From assembly GCA_016845785.1 (NCBI GenBank), contig JAERSH010000049.1, positions 40,140 through 104,139 of the forward strand: a stretch of DNA of 64,000 bases. Reading direction: 5' to 3'. This document shows positions 1,952-43,417 of this stretch, in pieces. Origin of the DNA: Fidelibacterota bacterium. GTDB taxonomy: Bacteria; Fidelibacterota; Marinisomatia; Marinisomatales; TCS55. The number at the start of each line of letters is the position of its first letter. Within the stretch, counting starts at the first letter, position 1. A program made the position numbers and the translations under genes. Under the pieces are notes generated by a model. It was not told the origin of the DNA. It searched no databases and worked only from the letters and a program-made list of their open reading frames with translations.

Positions 1952-2064
1952 TGTCATCGCGATCTCCGATATGATCGGAGAGAAGCGATCCCATTGTTTT
2001 TAGTACTATTTACAATGGGATTACTTCGTTGCCCCGACAACAATCGGGGCCTCTCGTAATGACA
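1952..2064. repeat. Multi-hairpin palindromic intergenic element, copy 1 (ispD-ispF spacer)
   Basis: Termini are TGTCATCGCGA ... TCGTAATGACA. Hairpin TCTCCGAT(1963-1970)/ATCGGAGA(1974-1981). Long central stem GAAGCGATCCCATTGT(1982-1997)/ACAATGGGATTACTTC(2012-2027), with 2 mismatches. Hairpin GCCCCGA(2031-2037)/TCGGGGC(2044-2050). Same architecture as the copies at 42248-42357 and 42931-43050. Confidence 0.7.
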
Positions 2065-2088: not shown

Positions 2089-2769
2089 TTATTCCTGTAA
2101 CCTGTTATAAATCGCTTCAGCGAAAACCCAATCTTCTTCTGTCGTAATTTTAATATTTAAGGAAGATCCTTCCACAAAACCCACCTGATACCCAATCCGC
2201 TCTAAAAGAGAAGCTTCGTCTGTCCCTTGAATATCTTCTGCTTCCGCTAATTCTAACGCTTCCTGCAATGCCAGTTTAGAAAAAACCTGTGGTGTTTGGG
2301 CTCGCCAAATGGTTTCTCTAGGCAACGTTTCTAAAATCTGATCTTCCATAACCTTTTTGATTGTATCCGTAGAGGACTGTGCCACAATTACACCGTCGTG
2401 TTCACTGCAGGCTTTGACCGCTTTTTCAATCAACCCTTCCGTCACAAATGGCCGCACCGCATCATGCACACAAATGAGTTCAGATGACTCATCCGTTGCA
2501 GCCAATCCATTGTGAACCGAAACCTGTCGGGAATTTCCTCCAGCCACAACTTTCACCGGTTTTGCAGAAATCATGGATCGAAGTTCCCTATCCACTTGAT
2601 CTACATCTTTTTTTGGCACCACCACCACAATTTCATTTATTAACGCTGACCGAATAAATGGCTGTAAAGTATGGTACAGAAGTGGACGACCGTCCAGATT
2701 TTTTAGCTGCTTTTTCCCGCCAAAGCGTTCACCGCTCCCGGCTGCCGGAATGACGGCAGATATTTTCAT
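2089..2769 (-). CDS. ispD: 2-C-methyl-D-erythritol 4-phosphate cytidylyltransferase
   Basis: 226-aa ORF with N-terminal AVIPAAGSGERFG nucleotidyltransferase loop, and IspD-typical length. It is monofunctional, not fused to ispF. Confidence 0.9.
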   Translation of the reverse strand: MKISAVIPAAGSGERFGGKKQLKNLDGRPLLYHTLQPFIRSALINEIVVVVPKKDVDQVDRELRSMISAKPVKVVAGGNSRQVSVHNGLAATDESSELICVHDAVRPFVTEGLIEKAVKACSEHDGVIVAQSSTDTIKKVMEDQILETLPRETIWRAQTPQVFSKLALQEALELAEAEDIQGTDEASLLERIGYQVGFVEGSSLNIKITTEEDWVFAEAIYNRLQE

Positions 2770-2793
2770 TCTTTTCTCTCCCCGCTAAAATGA

Positions 2794-3846
2794 TTAAAGA
2801 ATCAGCATGGCATCGCCATAACTCAAGAAGCGATAATCATTTTTCTTTGCTTCACGATAGGCTTTCATGATGAGATCGCGGTTTGCAAACGCCGATACCA
2901 TCATGAGCAGTGTGCTTTTTGGCTGATGAAAATTGGTAATCATTGCATCTACCATTTTGAACTCATAAGGGGGGTAAATGAATTTGTCCGTCCAACCCCG
3001 TTTTGGAGATACCTGAAATCCGGATACGGCTACTGTCTCCAAAGATCTAACTGTGGATGTCCCCACCGCAAATACACGGCGGCGTTTTTTCTTTGTTTCA
3101 TTGATAGACATGGCTGTAGCGGGATCCACTTCGAAATACTCGGAATCCATCTGGTGGCGATTTAAGTCTTCAACCTGCACCGGGCGAAATGTCCCTAATC
3201 CAATATGGAGTGTGGTATGAGCTGTTTTCGCTCCTTTATCATGGATGCGCTTAATCAAGCCATCGGTAAAGTGGAGACCGGCCGTGGGTGCCGCCACCGC
3301 ACCGCGCCTTTCAGCAAATACGGTTTGATAGCGAATTTTATCCTTCGGCTCCGACTCCCTTTTGATATAGGGCGGAAGGGGTGAGATGCCAACGCGATCA
3401 ATTACATCATAAATATCTTCACCTTCATATTCGAATCGTACAACGCGCCCACCGGAAATGGTATTGTCAATCACATCACAATAAACATTTTTGGTAAACA
3501 TAAGTTTGTTCCCAATCCGGACTTTACGGGCCGGGCGGACCATAACTTCCCAGAGATCGTTCTCTAGCTCACGGAGTAAGAAAACTTCTACTTTTGCTTC
3601 CGTCCGATCTTTGCTGGCATAGAGTCGCGCAGGGAACACTTTCGTATTGTTGGTAATGATTAGATCATTCCGTCGCAGATATTCCGGGAGGTTAGAAAAT
3701 ATTTTATGTTCAATCTTACCCGTATCCCGATGGATAACCATCAATTTAGATAAATCTCTTCGTTTTGCTGGATATTGGGCAATATATTTTTCAGGTAGTG
3801 CATAGTCAAAATCCGACAATTTCCATTTTTTCTTTTTTTCGATCAT
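2794..3846 (-). CDS. queA: S-adenosylmethionine:tRNA ribosyltransferase-isomerase
   Basis: 350-aa ORF with [32 protein letters not shown] and [11 protein letters not shown] motifs characteristic of QueA. Its ATG overlaps the ruvB stop (ATGA). Confidence 0.95.
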
Positions 3847-39380: not shown

Positions 39381-40724
39381 ATGAAAACTAAACCCATCTT
39401 CATTATATTTTTGTTGAGCGCTTTGGCTTGGGGAGATGATCTCAAGGATGACATTCTGCCCATGCGGGAGCGTGCGGCCGTTCGGGATGCCTTACTCAAA
39501 GATCGATTCGAGACCGTATTACCAGAAATCATGCGGCGAAACCAAATGGACATGTGGATTATTATTGCCCGGGAATACAACGAAGATCCTGTTGTCCGCA
39601 CCATGCTCCCAGCCACCTGGCTCAATGCCCGTCGGCGTACTGTATTGGTCATCTTTGATCCCGGACAAAACAAACCGCTGGAAACATATGCAGTGGCCCG
39701 ATATGATGTAGGGGAGGTGTTTAAAAAAGCGTGGGATCCGGAAGCTGAGCCGGACCAATACAAAGCGTTGACAGATATGATTAAGGAAAAAGATCCAAAA
39801 AAGATTGGTGTAAATATGAGCGAATTCTTTGCTCAGGCTGATGGGCTCACGGCTACGGAATATGACCTGTTTAAAAAAGCACTTCCAGGGAAATATGAAA
39901 GACGGCTCGTGAGCGCTGAACAGGTAGCCATCGGCTGGCTGGAAACGCGGAGTCAAAAAGAAATGGAGATTTATCCTAAGATATGCCGTATTGCACACGA
40001 CATTATTAAAGAAGGTTTTTCTGCCAAGGTGATTACACCGGGAGTTACCACCACTGATGATATTGTATGGTGGTATCGCGAACGCATCCGCGATTTAAAT
40101 CTTATTACTTGGTTTCATCCATCCGTGGATATTCAGCGAAATGATAATCAAAACTTCGATTTTCTGGAGGCATTTTCAAAGTCTAAACCTGATAATGTGG
40201 TCCGGCCCGGAGATTTGCTTCATGTAGATTTTGGTATCACTTATCTCAGCCTAAACACAGACACACAGCAGCATGCTTATGTGCTCATGCCCGGAGAGGA
40301 TCGTGTTCCCAATGAATTGGCCCAAGCGCTGGCAACGGGTAATCGACTTCAAGATATATTAACCGATCAATTCAAAACGGGGCGGACCGGTAATGAAATG
40401 CTCCTATCCGCACTGGGGCAAGCAAAGGATGAAGGGATTAAACCCCAAATTTATACCCATCCCATTGGTTACTATGGTCATGGGTCGGGGCCCACCATCG
40501 GCATGTGGGATAAACAAGAAGGGGTCCCGATTACGGGTGATTATCCACTATATCCTAATACGGCTTTTTCCATCGAATTGAATGCAAAAGTATTCATACC
40601 ATCATGGAAGAAGGAGGTGGCTATCATGTTAGAAGAAGATGCCTTTTTTGATGGAGAAACATGTGAATATATCGATCCAAGGCAGACTGAAATGATTATT
40701 ATCGATTGGAATAATGACAAATGA
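39381..40724 (+). CDS. Exported M24-family metallopeptidase (Xaa-Pro aminopeptidase-like)
   Basis: GGAG sits 6 nt upstream of the ATG at 39381, and the signal peptide is MKTKPIFIIFLLSALAWG. Pita-bread metal-ligand contexts HVDFGITY, THPIGYYGHG, SIELNA, MLEED. Confidence 0.85.
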   Translation: MKTKPIFIIFLLSALAWGDDLKDDILPMRERAAVRDALLKDRFETVLPEIMRRNQMDMWIIIAREYNEDPVVRTMLPATWLNARRRTVLVIFDPGQNKPLETYAVARYDVGEVFKKAWDPEAEPDQYKALTDMIKEKDPKKIGVNMSEFFAQADGLTATEYDLFKKALPGKYERRLVSAEQVAIGWLETRSQKEMEIYPKICRIAHDIIKEGFSAKVITPGVTTTDDIVWWYRERIRDLNLITWFHPSVDIQRNDNQNFDFLEAFSKSKPDNVVRPGDLLHVDFGITYLSLNTDTQQHAYVLMPGEDRVPNELAQALATGNRLQDILTDQFKTGRTGNEMLLSALGQAKDEGIKPQIYTHPIGYYGHGSGPTIGMWDKQEGVPITGDYPLYPNTAFSIELNAKVFIPSWKKEVAIMLEEDAFFDGETCEYIDPRQTEMIIIDWNNDK

Positions 40725-42199
40725 AAAATGTTCTAAAAGGAGTGGGAATTTTATTGGGCATCTTCATCGGTATTTTAGTCTTTAACACGTTACGAATCGG
40801 CGGCGGTGGCGATAAAATAGAATCTGCAGATCTAAAGCCGGTCCATATTCAACAGGCAGTAGATCGACTTTCTGACGGACTGAAAATTCCTACCATTTCC
40901 CAAATGAATTCTGGGGAAATTGACTATACACATTTTGTGAGCTTCAATGCGTTTCTCCGTCGAGAATATCCCAATGTGTTTACCAGACTTGATGTGCATA
41001 CGATCAATACGCACAGCCTCCTATTCAAATGGTCAGGACAGGATGAAACCAAACTTCCCATCCTACTCATGGCCCATATGGATGTGGTGCCTATTGATCA
41101 GCAATCCTTAGATCAATGGACACACCCACCATTTGACGGCACCACCGATTCAACAACAGTATGGGGTCGTGGTGCCATGGATGATAAGGGCAGTCTGTTT
41201 GCCATCATGGAGTCCGTTTCTCACTTAATTGAAACGGGGTTCACCCCAAAACAAACCATCTATATTGCCTTTGGCCATGATGAAGAAATTGGAGGCACCC
41301 AAGGGGCAAAATTCTCAGCTGATTATTTTAAATCGAAAGGTATCACCTTCGATTTTGTATTGGATGAAGGGGGTGGCATATCTAAAGAATTAGGCATGGG
41401 CCTTGATAAACAGGTGGCATTCGTTGCTGTAAGTGAAAAAGGATATGTTACCTTAGAATTGGTTGCAAAAGGAGCGGGCGGCCATTCGTCCATGCCCGGG
41501 AAAGAAACCACCATCGGTATTCTGGCCACCGCCATCTCAAAACTGCAAGCCAACCCGTTGCCGGCACAGTTGGATGGTCCCATTAAACATATGCTGAACG
41601 CCATGGCGCCGGAGATGGGATTTATACCCCGAATGGTCATGGCCAATCAGTGGATATTCGGTGGATTGTTAGATGGCATTTTGTCCGAAAACCCATCAGG
41701 GAATGCTATGGTGCGCACCACCACAGCCCCCACCATTATTTCTGCCGGCGTGAAGGATAACGTAATTCCGGCCCAAGCCAAGGCTATGGTGAATTTCAGA
41801 ATTATTCCCGGCGATACACCTGAAAGCGTGATCCAAATGGTAAGAGATATTATTGACGATGAACGGATTGAAGTCCGTCAGCCGGAGGGCGGTTTCGGCC
41901 GTGAACCTGCGCCGGTTTCAGATCCTAATTCTGATCAGTTCAATTTTTTATCCTACAAAATTCAGGAGGTCTTCCCCGGTACGGTGGTGGTTCCCGGCGT
42001 GTCTCCCGGTGGAACAGATACAAAACACTTTGTGGACCTCTCTCCCAATATTTTTCGATTTTCGCCTATTGAAACGCAAGAAGGGGACTTAAAACGCATC
42101 CACGGTATTGATGAACGGATTAGCATAAGCGCATTTGAAAAGGGAATCCAATTTTATATTCACTTGATTGAATCGTTAGGGAAAGATCAAAAGTTATAA
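40721..42199 (+). CDS. M20-family metallopeptidase (carboxypeptidase/aminoacylase-like), membrane-anchored or exported
   Basis: 492 aa with an N-terminal hydrophobic anchor. M20 ligand contexts LLMAHMDVVP, WGRGAMDDKG, FGHDEEIGG, LDEGG, GGTDTKH. Confidence 0.85.
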   Translation: MKNVLKGVGILLGIFIGILVFNTLRIGGGGDKIESADLKPVHIQQAVDRLSDGLKIPTISQMNSGEIDYTHFVSFNAFLRREYPNVFTRLDVHTINTHSLLFKWSGQDETKLPILLMAHMDVVPIDQQSLDQWTHPPFDGTTDSTTVWGRGAMDDKGSLFAIMESVSHLIETGFTPKQTIYIAFGHDEEIGGTQGAKFSADYFKSKGITFDFVLDEGGGISKELGMGLDKQVAFVAVSEKGYVTLELVAKGAGGHSSMPGKETTIGILATAISKLQANPLPAQLDGPIKHMLNAMAPEMGFIPRMVMANQWIFGGLLDGILSENPSGNAMVRTTTAPTIISAGVKDNVIPAQAKAMVNFRIIPGDTPESVIQMVRDIIDDERIEVRQPEGGFGREPAPVSDPNSDQFNFLSYKIQEVFPGTVVVPGVSPGGTDTKHFVDLSPNIFRFSPIETQEGDLKRIHGIDERISISAFEKGIQFYIHLIESLGKDQKL

Positions 42200-42247
42200 T
42201 CGTGTTTTAACTATGCAAAGAAAATTAAAACCCACATCATCCATTAT

Positions 42248-42357
42248 TGTTATTCTGATCCCCGATAATATTCGGGGAGAAGAATCTCAAGTGTTTGGCT
42301 ATTCGTCCACATTTGCTTGAGATACTTCATCCTGATAAATCAGGCCTCAGTATGACA
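42248..42357. repeat. Multi-hairpin palindromic intergenic element, copy 2
   Basis: Termini are TGTTATTCTGA ... TCAGTATGACA. Hairpin CCCCGA(42260-42265)/TCGGGG(42272-42277). Central stem GAAGAATCTCAAG(42279-42291)/CTTGAGATACTTC(42316-42328), with 1 mismatch. Hairpin CCTGA(42331-42335)/TCAGG(42340-42344). Lies between convergent genes. Confidence 0.72.
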
Positions 42358-42418
42358 ATTTTATTTTGAATACGGCGGGGAGGCCTTGATCCCCGCTCAT
42401 TGGGGAACAAAAGAAATA

Positions 42419-42904
42419 TTAAACCGCTTCGAATACGCCTGTTTCTTTATTTTTTTTCACCTTGTCGTAATCAAAGCAGCGGCCGTTCATGGCCACATAT
42501 ACACCATGGGGCAGGCTCTGGACAAACCCCAGTGCGCTCCCCAAATTAAACAGTCCGTCTGAACTACCAAATTTATAAGGGATCATGGCGCCGGTGAGGA
42601 CGATGGTTTTTTCTAAATTGGCGCTTGCCAAAAATTTTCCTGTCTCTGTCATGGTGTCCGTACCGTGGGTAATGATAATCTGATCTTCTTCTGCGTGTTT
42701 ACAGTTTTCTACCACAAGCTTTCGGTCGTCGTCTGTCATTTCAAGACTGTCCACCATCATGAGGGTCCGGATATTCACATCAATTCGTGATCGACCCAGC
42801 TCCAGCATTTCGCGCATATGGGTATCCTTGAAGAAGAGTTTGCCGGTGATTTCGTCGTACTCTTTGTCGAAAGTACCGCCGGTGATGAAAATGCGAATTG
42901 CCAT
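42419..42904 (-). CDS. Stand-alone asparaginase N-terminal-domain protein
   Basis: About 161 aa. Has the asparaginase/glutaminase active-site contexts FITGGTFDK and ITHGTDTM but lacks the C-terminal domain. Start is either ATG 42904 (MAIRIF) or 42916. Confidence 0.7.
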   Translation of the reverse strand: MAIRIFITGGTFDKEYDEITGKLFFKDTHMREMLELGRSRIDVNIRTLMMVDSLEMTDDDRKLVVENCKHAEEDQIIITHGTDTMTETGKFLASANLEKTIVLTGAMIPYKFGSSDGLFNLGSALGFVQSLPHGVYVAMNGRCFDYDKVKKNKETGVFEAV

Positions 42905-42930
42905 CAGTATTTCCAAATAGCGCTATACAT

Positions 42931-43050
42931 TGTCATTCTGACCCCTGACACGAAGTGTCGGGTGGAAGAATCTCAAATAGGGGCAAATAACAAATCGTAC
43001 GCTTGAGATTCTTCACTCCCCCGCATTCTACGGGCTCATTCAGAATGACA
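42931..43050. repeat. Multi-hairpin palindromic intergenic element, copy 3
   Basis: Perfect 11-bp terminal inverted repeat TGTCATTCTGA(42931-42941)/TCAGAATGACA(43040-43050). Hairpin CCCTGACA/TGTCGGG (42943-42962). Perfect 12-bp central stem GAAGAATCTCAA(42965-42976)/TTGAGATTCTTC(43003-43014). Hairpin CCCG(43020-43023)/CGGG(43031-43034). Confidence 0.78.
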
Positions 43051-43066
43051 TTAAAAGGAGATAATC

Positions 43067-43417
43067 TCATATTAATTCCATCACATTCTCCGGTGGCCGC
43101 CCCAACACCGCTTTATCGCCTCTCACCACAATAGGCCGTTCCATAATTTTCGGATAGGCAACCATGGCCTTCACCATGGCATCGTCATTATCCAAAAGGT
43201 CCCCAATATGGTTCGCTTTAAAATCAGCTTCACCTTTTCGCACAAATTCGGAAGGACGTTTGCCCAGTTTTTTTGCAAGGGAATGAAAGTCCGCCTCTGA
43301 AGGCACATCCTTCAAATATTCTATAATAGTTGGTTCAACGCCATTGTCACGCAATAGCTGCAGTGTCTGCCTGCTTTTGCCTCACCGTGGGTTGTGGTAA
43401 ATGGTGAATCCGCTCAT
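43067..43417 (-). CDS. arsC: Glutaredoxin-type arsenate reductase ArsC with in-frame TGA at the catalytic Cys codon (candidate selenocysteine protein)
   Basis: The track only lists 43067-43354 (TTG start). In the same frame upstream, the ATG at 43417 gives MSGFTIYHNPR-[TGA 43382-43384]-GKSRQTLQLLRDNGVEPTIIEYL.... This aligns with E. coli/R773 ArsC ITIYHNPAC(12)GTSRNTLEMIRNSGTEPTII. Catalytic Arg contexts are conserved (FVRKGE, MERPIVV, LGRPPE). A hairpin-forming sequence follows the TGA. Confidence 0.7.

Follow-up and report, generated by a model that had tools for sequence, protein, structure and literature searches.

Palindromic elements of the window

The stretch of DNA analysed here, referred to as the window (64,000 nucleotides, G000:C49:40140-104139), belongs to a Marinimicrobia metagenome-assembled genome (MAG) of 2.16 Mb, 93 contigs and 42% G+C, which is labelled G000. 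Two copies of a palindromic element bracket the gene of a small asparaginase-like protein in this window. Each copy is a pair of inverted hairpin units, and we suggest that each unit is an Ssn-related DNA hairpin, the probable target of a small GIY-YIG nuclease encoded on another contig of the same genome.

The positions of all features are collected in Table 1. The original prediction had located both copies and described their gene context correctly (M20 peptidase, asparaginase N-terminal-domain protein, ArsC-family protein), and every string that it named is present, namely TGTCATTCTGA/TCAGAATGACA, GAAGAATCTCAA/TTGAGATTCTTC and the short self-complementary arms. Both copies have TGTCATTCTGA-type ends and the pair GAAGAATCTCAA/TTGAGATNCTTC, with 26 nt between. 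It had also counted three copies; a third element does exist in the window, but it belongs to a sibling subtype of the form TGTCATCGCGA.../TGTCATTACGA....

Table 1. Elements, units and genes discussed in the text. Positions are those of the window unless a genome and contig label is given.
Feature	Position	Strand	Description
Element copy 1, two hairpin units head-to-head	42248..42357	.	between convergent M20 peptidase and asparaginase-like genes
Copy 1, left unit	42248..42290	+	TGTT-ATTCTGA-[tccccgataatattcgggga]-GAAGAAT-CTCAA; degenerate tag TGTT; N pair T:A
Copy 1, spacer	42291..42316		26 nt, sequence variable (gtgtttggctattcgtccacatttgc)
Copy 1, right unit	42317..42357	-	minus-strand reading TGTC-ATACTGA-[ggcctgatttatcaggat]-GAAGTAT-CTCAA; N pair A:T
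Element copy 2, head-to-head dimer	42931..43050	.	arsC / asparaginase-like intergenic region
Copy 2, left unit	42931..42976	+	TGTC-ATTCTGA-[cccctgacacgaagtgtcgggtg]-GAAGAAT-CTCAA; N pair T:A
Copy 2, spacer	42977..43002		26 nt (ataggggcaaataacaaatcgtacgc)
Copy 2, right unit	43003..43050	-	minus-strand reading TGTC-ATTCTGA-[atgagcccgtagaatgcgggggagt]-GAAGAAT-CTCAA; N pair T:A
Third element, sibling subtype	1952..2064	.	TGTCATCGCGA.../TGTCATTACGA... type
Third element, left unit	1952-1992	+	TGTC-ATCGCGA...GAAGCGAT-CCC
Third element, right unit	2017-2064	-	TGTC-ATTACGA...GAAGTAAT-CCC
M20/M28 peptidase, flanking gene	40721..42199	+	
161-aa asparaginase N-terminal-domain protein, bracketed gene	42419..42904	-	ATG start at 42904
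ArsC-family protein, flanking gene	43067..43417	-	in-frame TGA 43382-43384 at catalytic Cys position
98-aa single-domain GIY-YIG open reading frame	G000:C25:2245-2541		outside window; PF01541
Elements flanking the C25 GIY-YIG gene	C25:1965-2067, 2113-2217; 2572-2674, 2720-2823		first two on one side, last two on the other side
Longer-arm units	G000:C18:77735-77800; G000:C25:590-666; G007:C33 (~150-260)		the last on the reverse strand of the locus excerpt

The window elements are not chance palindromes, because the genome has 56 occurrences of GAAGAATCTCAA with at most one mismatch, mostly paired and 38 nt apart, while the exact 12-mer is expected only 0.4 times (the expectation with up to one mismatch is about 15). 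The original prediction had proposed a genome-wide search for more copies. Such a scan, which required both boxes of a unit (TGTCAT-N-CTGA, 3-60 nt, GAAG-N'-ATCTCAA), detected 38 units in this genome compared with 0 in the reversed-genome control, and more are found in related MAGs. With a looser match, 17 complete two-unit elements were counted, all 17 of them intergenic and often in tandem or close to contig ends.

Anatomy of the hairpin unit

All units share the form TGTC-ATNCTGA-[variable mini-hairpin]-GAAGN'AT-CTC. The tag TGTC (rarely TGTT or CGTC) stands 5' of all 38 units, as it does in relatives and in other phyla, and the C directly 3' of the palindrome (...AT-CTC) is invariant. Units are inverted pairwise with the TGTC ends outermost. 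There are 15 such head-to-head pairs in the genome, 14 of them with a spacer of exactly 26 nt, and the length of this spacer is constant though its sequence varies. In related genomes 12 of 13 inspected pairs have the 26-nt spacer as well. The boxes ATCTC and GAGAT that face each other across the spacer are 30 nt apart in this genome compared with 20-50 nt in loci of other phyla, and hence the fixed 26-nt spacer is a feature of this lineage. Viewed as possible guides or targets, the spacers have only a loose RYRTTYGT end motif in common. As a side observation, the 26-nt spacers (e.g. 42291-42316 and 42977-43002) are asymmetric, with a tendency to RYRTTYGT(A)TTT at one end and a free sequence at the other, which gives the doublet a polarity; it is opposite in copies 1 and 2 of the window.

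The single variable position of the boxes permits a direct look at the conserved pairing. In this genome 34 of 38 units have a Watson-Crick N pair, with T:A, C:G, A:T and G:C all in use. Pairs were also counted in 79 full elements from many phyla, with the four boxes named TGTCAT[N1]CTGA, GAAG[N2]ATCTC, GAGAT[N3]CTTC and TCAG[N4]ATGACA. Within units the pairs are nearly always Watson-Crick (N1:N2 in 76/79, N3:N4 in 77/79), whereas between units they are so in about half of the elements (N1:N4 in 40/79, N2:N3 in 42/79). As the N pair covaries within units and not between them, the conserved structure is one hairpin per unit (~30-50 nt), composed of 5 bp ATNCT/AGN'AT, a tandem G.A/A.G step and a variable arm. 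Pairing joins box 1 to box 2 and likewise box 3 to box 4; the element is therefore a head-to-head dimer of two hairpins, and the single hairpin is the unit of selection. The compensatory variation noted in the original prediction is borne out, since the arms differ in sequence while they stay self-complementary, and the N pair is compensated too.

Whole elements and single units were also folded as single-stranded DNA and compared with shuffled sequences. The minimum-energy fold of the whole element consists of an outer stem formed by both ends, a long central stem and two short hairpins, and is very stable: z is -5.7 (+) and -5.1 (-) for copy 1, -5.6 (+) and -6.4 (-) for copy 2, and 0 of 200 shuffles folded equally well. 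The four-part architecture described earlier thus equals the computed minimum-energy structure, but the pair counts between units disagree with it. Folded alone, the left unit of copy 1 forms the unit hairpin (-9.5 kcal/mol, z -3.2), and so does the left unit of copy 2 (-8.8 kcal/mol, z -2.6).

The stability of the four-way fold could be read as the mark of a structured RNA on transcripts, such as a bidirectional terminator, an mRNA stabiliser or a small RNA. The intergenic positions, with one copy between convergent genes and two within probable operons, and G:T pairs in the arms would suit such a role, and RNA functions were considered for REPs by Di Nocera et al. (PMC3733652). However, the long stems of that fold are at odds with the covarying pair, T-runs are not consistently present, the arms end in mini-hairpins that are typical of DNA, and a scan of 42100-43200 against Rfam (E <= 10) gave only chance-level matches with E of 1.2-9, far under the gathering scores. 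A role as terminator or stabiliser is not favoured and appears improbable to us, because the consensus is a perfect palindrome at the DNA level, for which an RNA would have no reason, and because the published enzymes introduced below act on single-stranded DNA only; the characterised Ssn does not bind the RNA version of its repeat (PMC11893778). Two further comparisons were made and rejected. Hammerhead, hairpin-ribozyme and k-turn readings of CUGA...GAA do not fit by the spacing of their cores, and the consensus is palindromic; an integron attC site is likewise not in question, as there are no R'/R'' core sites.

The arm is free in length (5-45 nt), and outside this genome the commonest arms are GCGAAGC, GCGCAGC and GCGGAGC. 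The heptamer d(GCGNAGC) is an exceptionally stable DNA mini-hairpin (PMC13037366), and the shortest form of the unit, ATNCTGA-GC-GNA-GC-GAAGN'AT, comprises 9 'pairs' and a 3-nt loop. Since G:T outnumbers A:C in the variable arms on the tag strand (17 compared with 4), the data points to folding of this strand in particular. Sibling subtypes within the genome retain the junction letters TGTC|AT...AT|CYC with other compensated stems, among them ATTGC/GCAAT, ATACCGGG/CCCGGTAT and ATCGC/GCGAT. In some units the arm is longer (43-54 nt) and contains a conserved core, ...gaagccatgyct...ctacggcaga (Table 1); such an arm could represent a nested insertion or a separate kind of arm module.

Distribution across genomes

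The exact unit is present in 14 of 40 related genomes (0 units in the control), and between species of one genus the number of copies ranges from 0 to 18. A scan across the genomes of 185,579 species provided at least 120 loci, with Chloroflexota, Acidobacteriota, Verrucomicrobiota, Alpha-, Gamma- and Deltaproteobacteria, Bacteroidota, Gemmatimonadota, Nitrospirales, Planctomycetota, Firmicutes, Calditrichota and two lineages of the Candidate Phyla Radiation (CPR) among the sources, as well as Sulfurihydrogenibium and Helicobacter marmotae. Isolates can be rich in units, with 424 in the 2.0 Mb of Helicobacter marmotae, 167 in the 1.5 Mb of Sulfurihydrogenibium yellowstonense, 121 in Hymenobacter sp. 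YC55 and 37 in Pedobacter nototheniae. A literature search with the repeat sequence strings and the peptides of junk open reading frames gave no match.

In H. marmotae the units form dense arrays, with 13 units per 1.6 kb around an Ssn-like gene (G042:C17:5030-8290; excerpt L056:2050-3150), and the frame through this gene is open for 1324 codons.

Mobile replicons are nearly devoid of the element. There were 0 matches to the element among 72,556 plasmids and a single partial match among 50,697 phage records, and the element was found on 12 of 2.9 million viral contigs.

Empty and filled sites

Comparison of orthologous sites indicates presence and absence of the element within the genus. The gap between the arsC and asparaginase-like genes measures 161 nt here compared with ~4-18 nt in three congeners in which this gap is free of the element (G017, G012 and G019). 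In G017 and G012 neither of the two sites holds an element, and in G019 the arsC-side site lacks one, while G009 carries a related element in the opposite orientation in the same arsC/asparaginase-like intergenic site. Exact insertion boundaries were not found at these sites, the flanks of the congeners being too diverged for breakpoints and the filled sites having extra flank that cannot be aligned; two near-identical assemblies, obtained by exact-protein look-up, both have the filled site. Target-site duplications of at least 2 nt are not in excess (9 observed compared with 8.0 expected from permuted flanks). In 6 of 88 elements the flanks prolong the outer stem by 4 nt or more, compared with 0.6 expected.

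These observations bear on the view that the elements are ordinary miniature inverted-repeat transposable elements (MITEs), moved by a DDE transposase that reads the 11-bp terminal inverted repeats. Small size, dispersed intergenic positions and repeat ends of the type 5'-TG...CA-3' are what one would see in that case. We nevertheless consider it extremely unlikely: target-site duplications are not enriched, no full-length insertion sequence (IS) with such termini and a DDE gene was found, the element is nearly absent from the plasmids, phages and viral contigs mentioned above, and the covariation implies hairpins of single strands and not duplex binding sites. Moreover, the 120 listed loci of many phyla have no recurrent neighbour gene, only generic ones (ABC ATPase, response regulator, SBP, GT2), which would fit a partner that acts in trans. 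Of the classes offered in the original prediction, the dispersed intergenic repeat of repetitive extragenic palindromic (REP) or BIME type holds.

In search of an enzyme: Y1 transposases

For REP sequences one candidate is a REP-associated tyrosine transposase (RAYT), an enzyme of the HUH Y1 type, and the original prediction had named a RAYT or IS200-like partner. Tagged hairpins, inverted doublets and GCGNAGC tips are found in enterobacterial REPs too, four PF01797 genes are present in the genome, of which one is located 1.5 kb away from a group of elements on contig C14, and within the genus the genomes richest in units also have a strong Y1 gene. Several findings nonetheless make mobilisation by RAYT very unlikely. 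The tag is TGTC and not GTAG (GTRG); all four Y1 genes of the genome are flanked by small hairpins of their own, which are different from the present units; no element lies within ~4 kb of any of nine strong Y1 genes in relatives; many relatives possess Y1 genes and no units; and the element-rich isolates H. marmotae (424 units), S. yellowstonense (167) and P. nototheniae (37) have no PF01797 match. Di Nocera et al. likewise linked no transposase to CGTC repeats (PMC3733652).

Two of the Y1 genes deserve mention in their own right. At G000:C29:799-1413, outside the window, a 204-aa RAYT-like Y1 gene has its own REP-type hairpins on both sides (CACGGACATCTTTGTCCGTGG and relatives ending in GCCACT) and forms with them a separate REP/RAYT system in the same genome. 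At G000:C14:22643-23077 a 144-aa IS200-like TnpA is enclosed by GCCCTAAAGGGCAAGG and GGGCTWWAGCCC hairpins; four different TGTCAT...ATGACA elements are clustered 1.5 kb away from it (C14:20901-21400).

A small GIY-YIG gene beside the repeats

A profile search of the genome gave a PF01541 match at G000:C25:2260-2475 (E 9e-15), in the 98-aa open reading frame of Table 1. Element pairs stand 28 nt upstream and 30 nt downstream of this frame, and a paralogue on contig C52 is flanked by sibling units of the TGTCATTGCGA type. Orthologues with 88-91% identity to the C25 protein exist only in G007, G009 and G012, which together with G000 make up four of the five genomes of the genus with at least 3 units. 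The linkage extends beyond the genus. Cognate (C/T)GTCAT hairpins, with a stem that is specific to each paralogue, are found no more than a few hundred nt from the gene at 19 of 21 homologue loci, the sources being seven Marinimicrobia genera, Pedobacter, two Hymenobacter species and H. marmotae. A close homologue (E <= 1e-30) is found in 7 of 15 relatives with at least one unit compared with 1 of 26 without units, the related genomes being non-independent samples. Nine of ten distant element-bearing genomes have a homologue, among them five from other phyla, and only the S. yellowstonense draft has none.

Single-domain GIY-YIG proteins with such surroundings have been characterised. SsnA of Neisseria meningitidis is a 94-aa nuclease of this kind that cuts just upstream of the NTS repeat of Neisseria (CGTCATTCCCGCGMAVGCGGGAATCYRG, which contains dRS3); it binds NTS as single-stranded DNA only, on one strand only, and not as RNA, and cleavage depends critically on the three nt 5' of the palindrome and binding on the C that directly follows the palindrome (PMC11893778). 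An Ssn gene usually has its own repeat variant on either side, and there are thousands of homologues (Chenal et al. 2025, PMC11893778). Both positions critical for SsnA (GTC and C) are invariant in the present units. Two Burkholderiales genomes connect the systems. In G385, which has canonical NTS, two homologues of the C25 protein (44-45% identity, E down to 3e-24) are bracketed on both sides within 10-25 nt by canonical NTS, T/CGTCATTCCCGCGCAGGCGGGAATC, and in G283 the flanks of one paralogue carry TGTCATCCTGAGCGCAGCGAAGGATCTC, exactly the subtype of the present elements. Judged by these homologues beside canonical NTS, the C25 protein is a probable member of the Ssn family.

The genome also has four more small GIY-YIG open reading frames of another type (YVLRS...GKHRYVGH...; G000:C44:46774-47292, C44:202877-203086, C10:2294-2512). 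Each follows directly after or overlaps a tRNA-like sequence, two are in tandem, and they are without hairpin-repeat flanks.

Relation to published repeat systems

The units resemble the published Ssn/SRM system (CDD cd10448) in a hairpin with a (C/T)GTC tag directly 5' of a palindrome that starts and ends with AT and is followed by C, in tens to hundreds of copies per genome, in repeat variants specific to each paralogue, and in a single-domain GIY-YIG gene of ~95-100 aa flanked by repeats. They differ in a stem that is broken by the tandem G.A and continues into a free arm of 5-45 nt, whereas the published SRM motif has a continuous stem and a 0-5-nt loop. Moreover, the tag starts with T and not with C, and the units are nearly always head-to-head pairs with the fixed 26-nt spacer.

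A second parallel is the CGTC-tagged REP superfamily, whose tag is CGTC, often TGTC, or else CCTC, and whose stems nearly always begin with A-T, T-A and are followed by an unpaired 3-nt tail (PMC3733652). These REPs are mainly head-to-head dimers; their spacers of 20-100 nt may be constant in length while the sequence changes, and often have complementary ends (PMC3733652). They are mostly intergenic, and a dedicated transposase was not identified (Di Nocera et al. 2013, PMC3733652). The superfamily comprises the families CGTC-1 to -4 and includes dRS3 of Neisseria and RPE-4/-6 of Rickettsia (PMC3733652). The present units, with their TGTC tag | AT...AT stem | CTC tail, their dimers with tags outside, a spacer within 20-100 nt and no transposase, are alike in these respects. 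Differences lie in the stem and tail, which are 8-9 bp with a 4-5-nt loop and CCA in that superfamily and 5 bp with the G.A/A.G step, a variable arm and CTC here, and in the range, CGTC-REPs having been reported in five phyla (PMC3733652) and the present subtype occurring in many more. The shortest form of the unit, with its 9 'pairs' and 3-nt loop, approaches the published stem.

More distant is the likeness to REP/REPIN-RAYT systems. These are reportedly the subject of Bertels and Rainey (2011). They share with the present elements tagged hairpins of single-stranded DNA, inverted doublets, GCGNAGC-type tips and a small nuclease gene flanked by repeats, but have a GTAG tag and the HUH Y1 enzyme fold instead of TGTC and GIY-YIG (Nunvar 2010, PMC2817692). 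On comparison of their sequences, the elements of the window are classed as CGTC/TGTC-tagged REPs of the Ssn/SRM kind and thus exemplify a system already known. Novelty is confined to a G.A-mismatch subfamily that escapes the SRM string discussed below, spans many phyla and has a fixed 26-nt spacer here.

Proposed function

We hypothesize that each half-element is an Ssn-related DNA hairpin and that its cognate protein is the 98-aa Ssn-family GIY-YIG nuclease encoded on C25, a reading to which we give a probability of about 78%. In this model the recognised unit would consist of an unpaired 5' TGTC tag, a stem that begins with A-T, T-A and comprises five Watson-Crick pairs, the tandem G.A/A.G step, a variable stem-loop and the C that follows. 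As the stem is broken by G.A and the arm is free in length and sequence, the comparison suggests that recognition by the enzyme is confined to the tag, basal pairs and trailing C. The inverted pair with tags outermost would present one correctly oriented unit on each DNA strand, so that the site would be open to cleavage no matter which of the two strands became single-stranded. If it behaves like the characterised enzymes of Neisseria, N. elongata, N. wadsworthii and Wolbachia, the C25 nuclease would bind to the folded hairpin only in single-stranded DNA, such as incoming transforming or conjugative DNA or intermediates of replication and repair. It may cut the tagged strand a few nt 5' of the tag, and this cleavage may limit recombination of repeat-carrying DNA.

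A number of points weigh against this model. The congener G006 has 5 units and no homologue. The draft genome of S. yellowstonense SS-5 has 167 units and no small GIY-YIG gene, its only GIY-YIG match being a 584-aa open frame that is taken to be UvrC. The C25 protein itself has no NCBIfam match and no PDB relative by sequence. The SRM search string, HGTCWYN(0-2)YYVSBRHN(0-5)WNVSBRGN(0-2)RNCYNB, matches 0 of 27 exact units, so that recognition rules may differ; its 3 matches genome-wide are not at repeat units. That string was derived from 29 genomes (PMC11893778), and it misses the present units because it does not allow for the G.A step and long arms. Furthermore, the rare N pairs that are not Watson-Crick are more often C/A than T/G on the tag strand, which is a poor fit to simple selection for pairing of this strand. 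The exact 26-nt spacer is not accounted for by the Ssn model. Anatomy, covariation, linkage of gene and repeats, co-occurrence and homology to genes beside canonical NTS are seen in the sequences, and single-strand-specific binding, cleavage and any effect on gene transfer are carried over from the literature.

Spread of the repeats

Another account is compatible with this model and goes further, in that the repeats would be mainly selfish DNA and not a host device. In this account the head-to-head dimers would be MITE-like and non-autonomous, derived from a tiny mobile element of the order unit-ssn gene-unit, and the GIY-YIG nuclease would actively move or copy them via single-stranded DNA. 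The IS-like layout in G385, unit(+)-gene-unit(-) with units 10-25 nt from the gene ends, is in line with it, and removal of the gene from this layout would leave a spacer of ~30 nt, similar to that of a dimer. The orthologous sites of the genus differ in presence and absence (G017 and G012 empty at both, G019 empty on the arsC side, G009 with a related element in the opposite orientation), copy number is patchy (0-26 units in congeners), and subfamilies of near-identical units occur in bursts, as in H. marmotae and S. yellowstonense. A lack of target-site duplications is to be expected for single-strand mechanisms. Chenal et al. raise the same idea of repeat spread by the nuclease and leave the question open (PMC11893778).

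There is, however, neither a transposition event nor a clean empty/filled pair with exact boundaries among the sites described above, the filled ones having extra non-alignable flank and both near-identical assemblies being filled. The Marinimicrobia gene is located beside dimers and not within one, and the repeats persist in the S. yellowstonense draft, which has no small GIY-YIG gene. To our knowledge, GIY-YIG enzymes are not known to rejoin DNA. Site polymorphism, near-identical bursts, the G385 layout and the absence of target duplications are hence suggestive only, and we hold spread by the nuclease to be a tentative possibility with the balance somewhat on the negative side. The more specific version, in which the doublets are gene-less miniatures of an ultra-small element whose sole gene is the GIY-YIG nuclease, spreading via single-stranded DNA with the 26-nt spacer as a geometric requirement, is in our opinion unlikely, though worth stating. 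If true, it would amount to a class of transposons built on a nuclease fold that is not known to support transposition in bacteria.

Implications

The testable partner, a GIY-YIG nuclease, replaces the RAYT idea. The SRM string misses a whole subfamily that is present in H. marmotae, Sulfurihydrogenibium, Acidobacteriota, Chloroflexota, CPR and others, and surveys built on this string therefore undercount Ssn-linked repeats. Conservation is confined to the tag, the five basal pairs, the G.A step and the trailing C, and the distal arm varies freely; the units therefore provide a natural mutational map of likely nuclease recognition, which could guide the choice of Ssn enzymes as tools for single-stranded DNA.

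For the genome itself, the elements account for several enlarged intergenic regions of a streamlined marine organism, including insertions inside the probable operons arsC/asparaginase-like and ispD/ispF. The repeats also yield recurrent junk open reading frames and break MAG assemblies; many copies in this genome are close to contig ends.

A minor observation concerns the ArsC-family gene next to copy 2. Its in-frame TGA stands in the context IYHNPR-U-GKSR, and lists of open reading frames shorten the product to 95 aa. Because this TGA at the position of the catalytic Cys is kept in the G017 orthologue, the gene likely encodes a selenoprotein.

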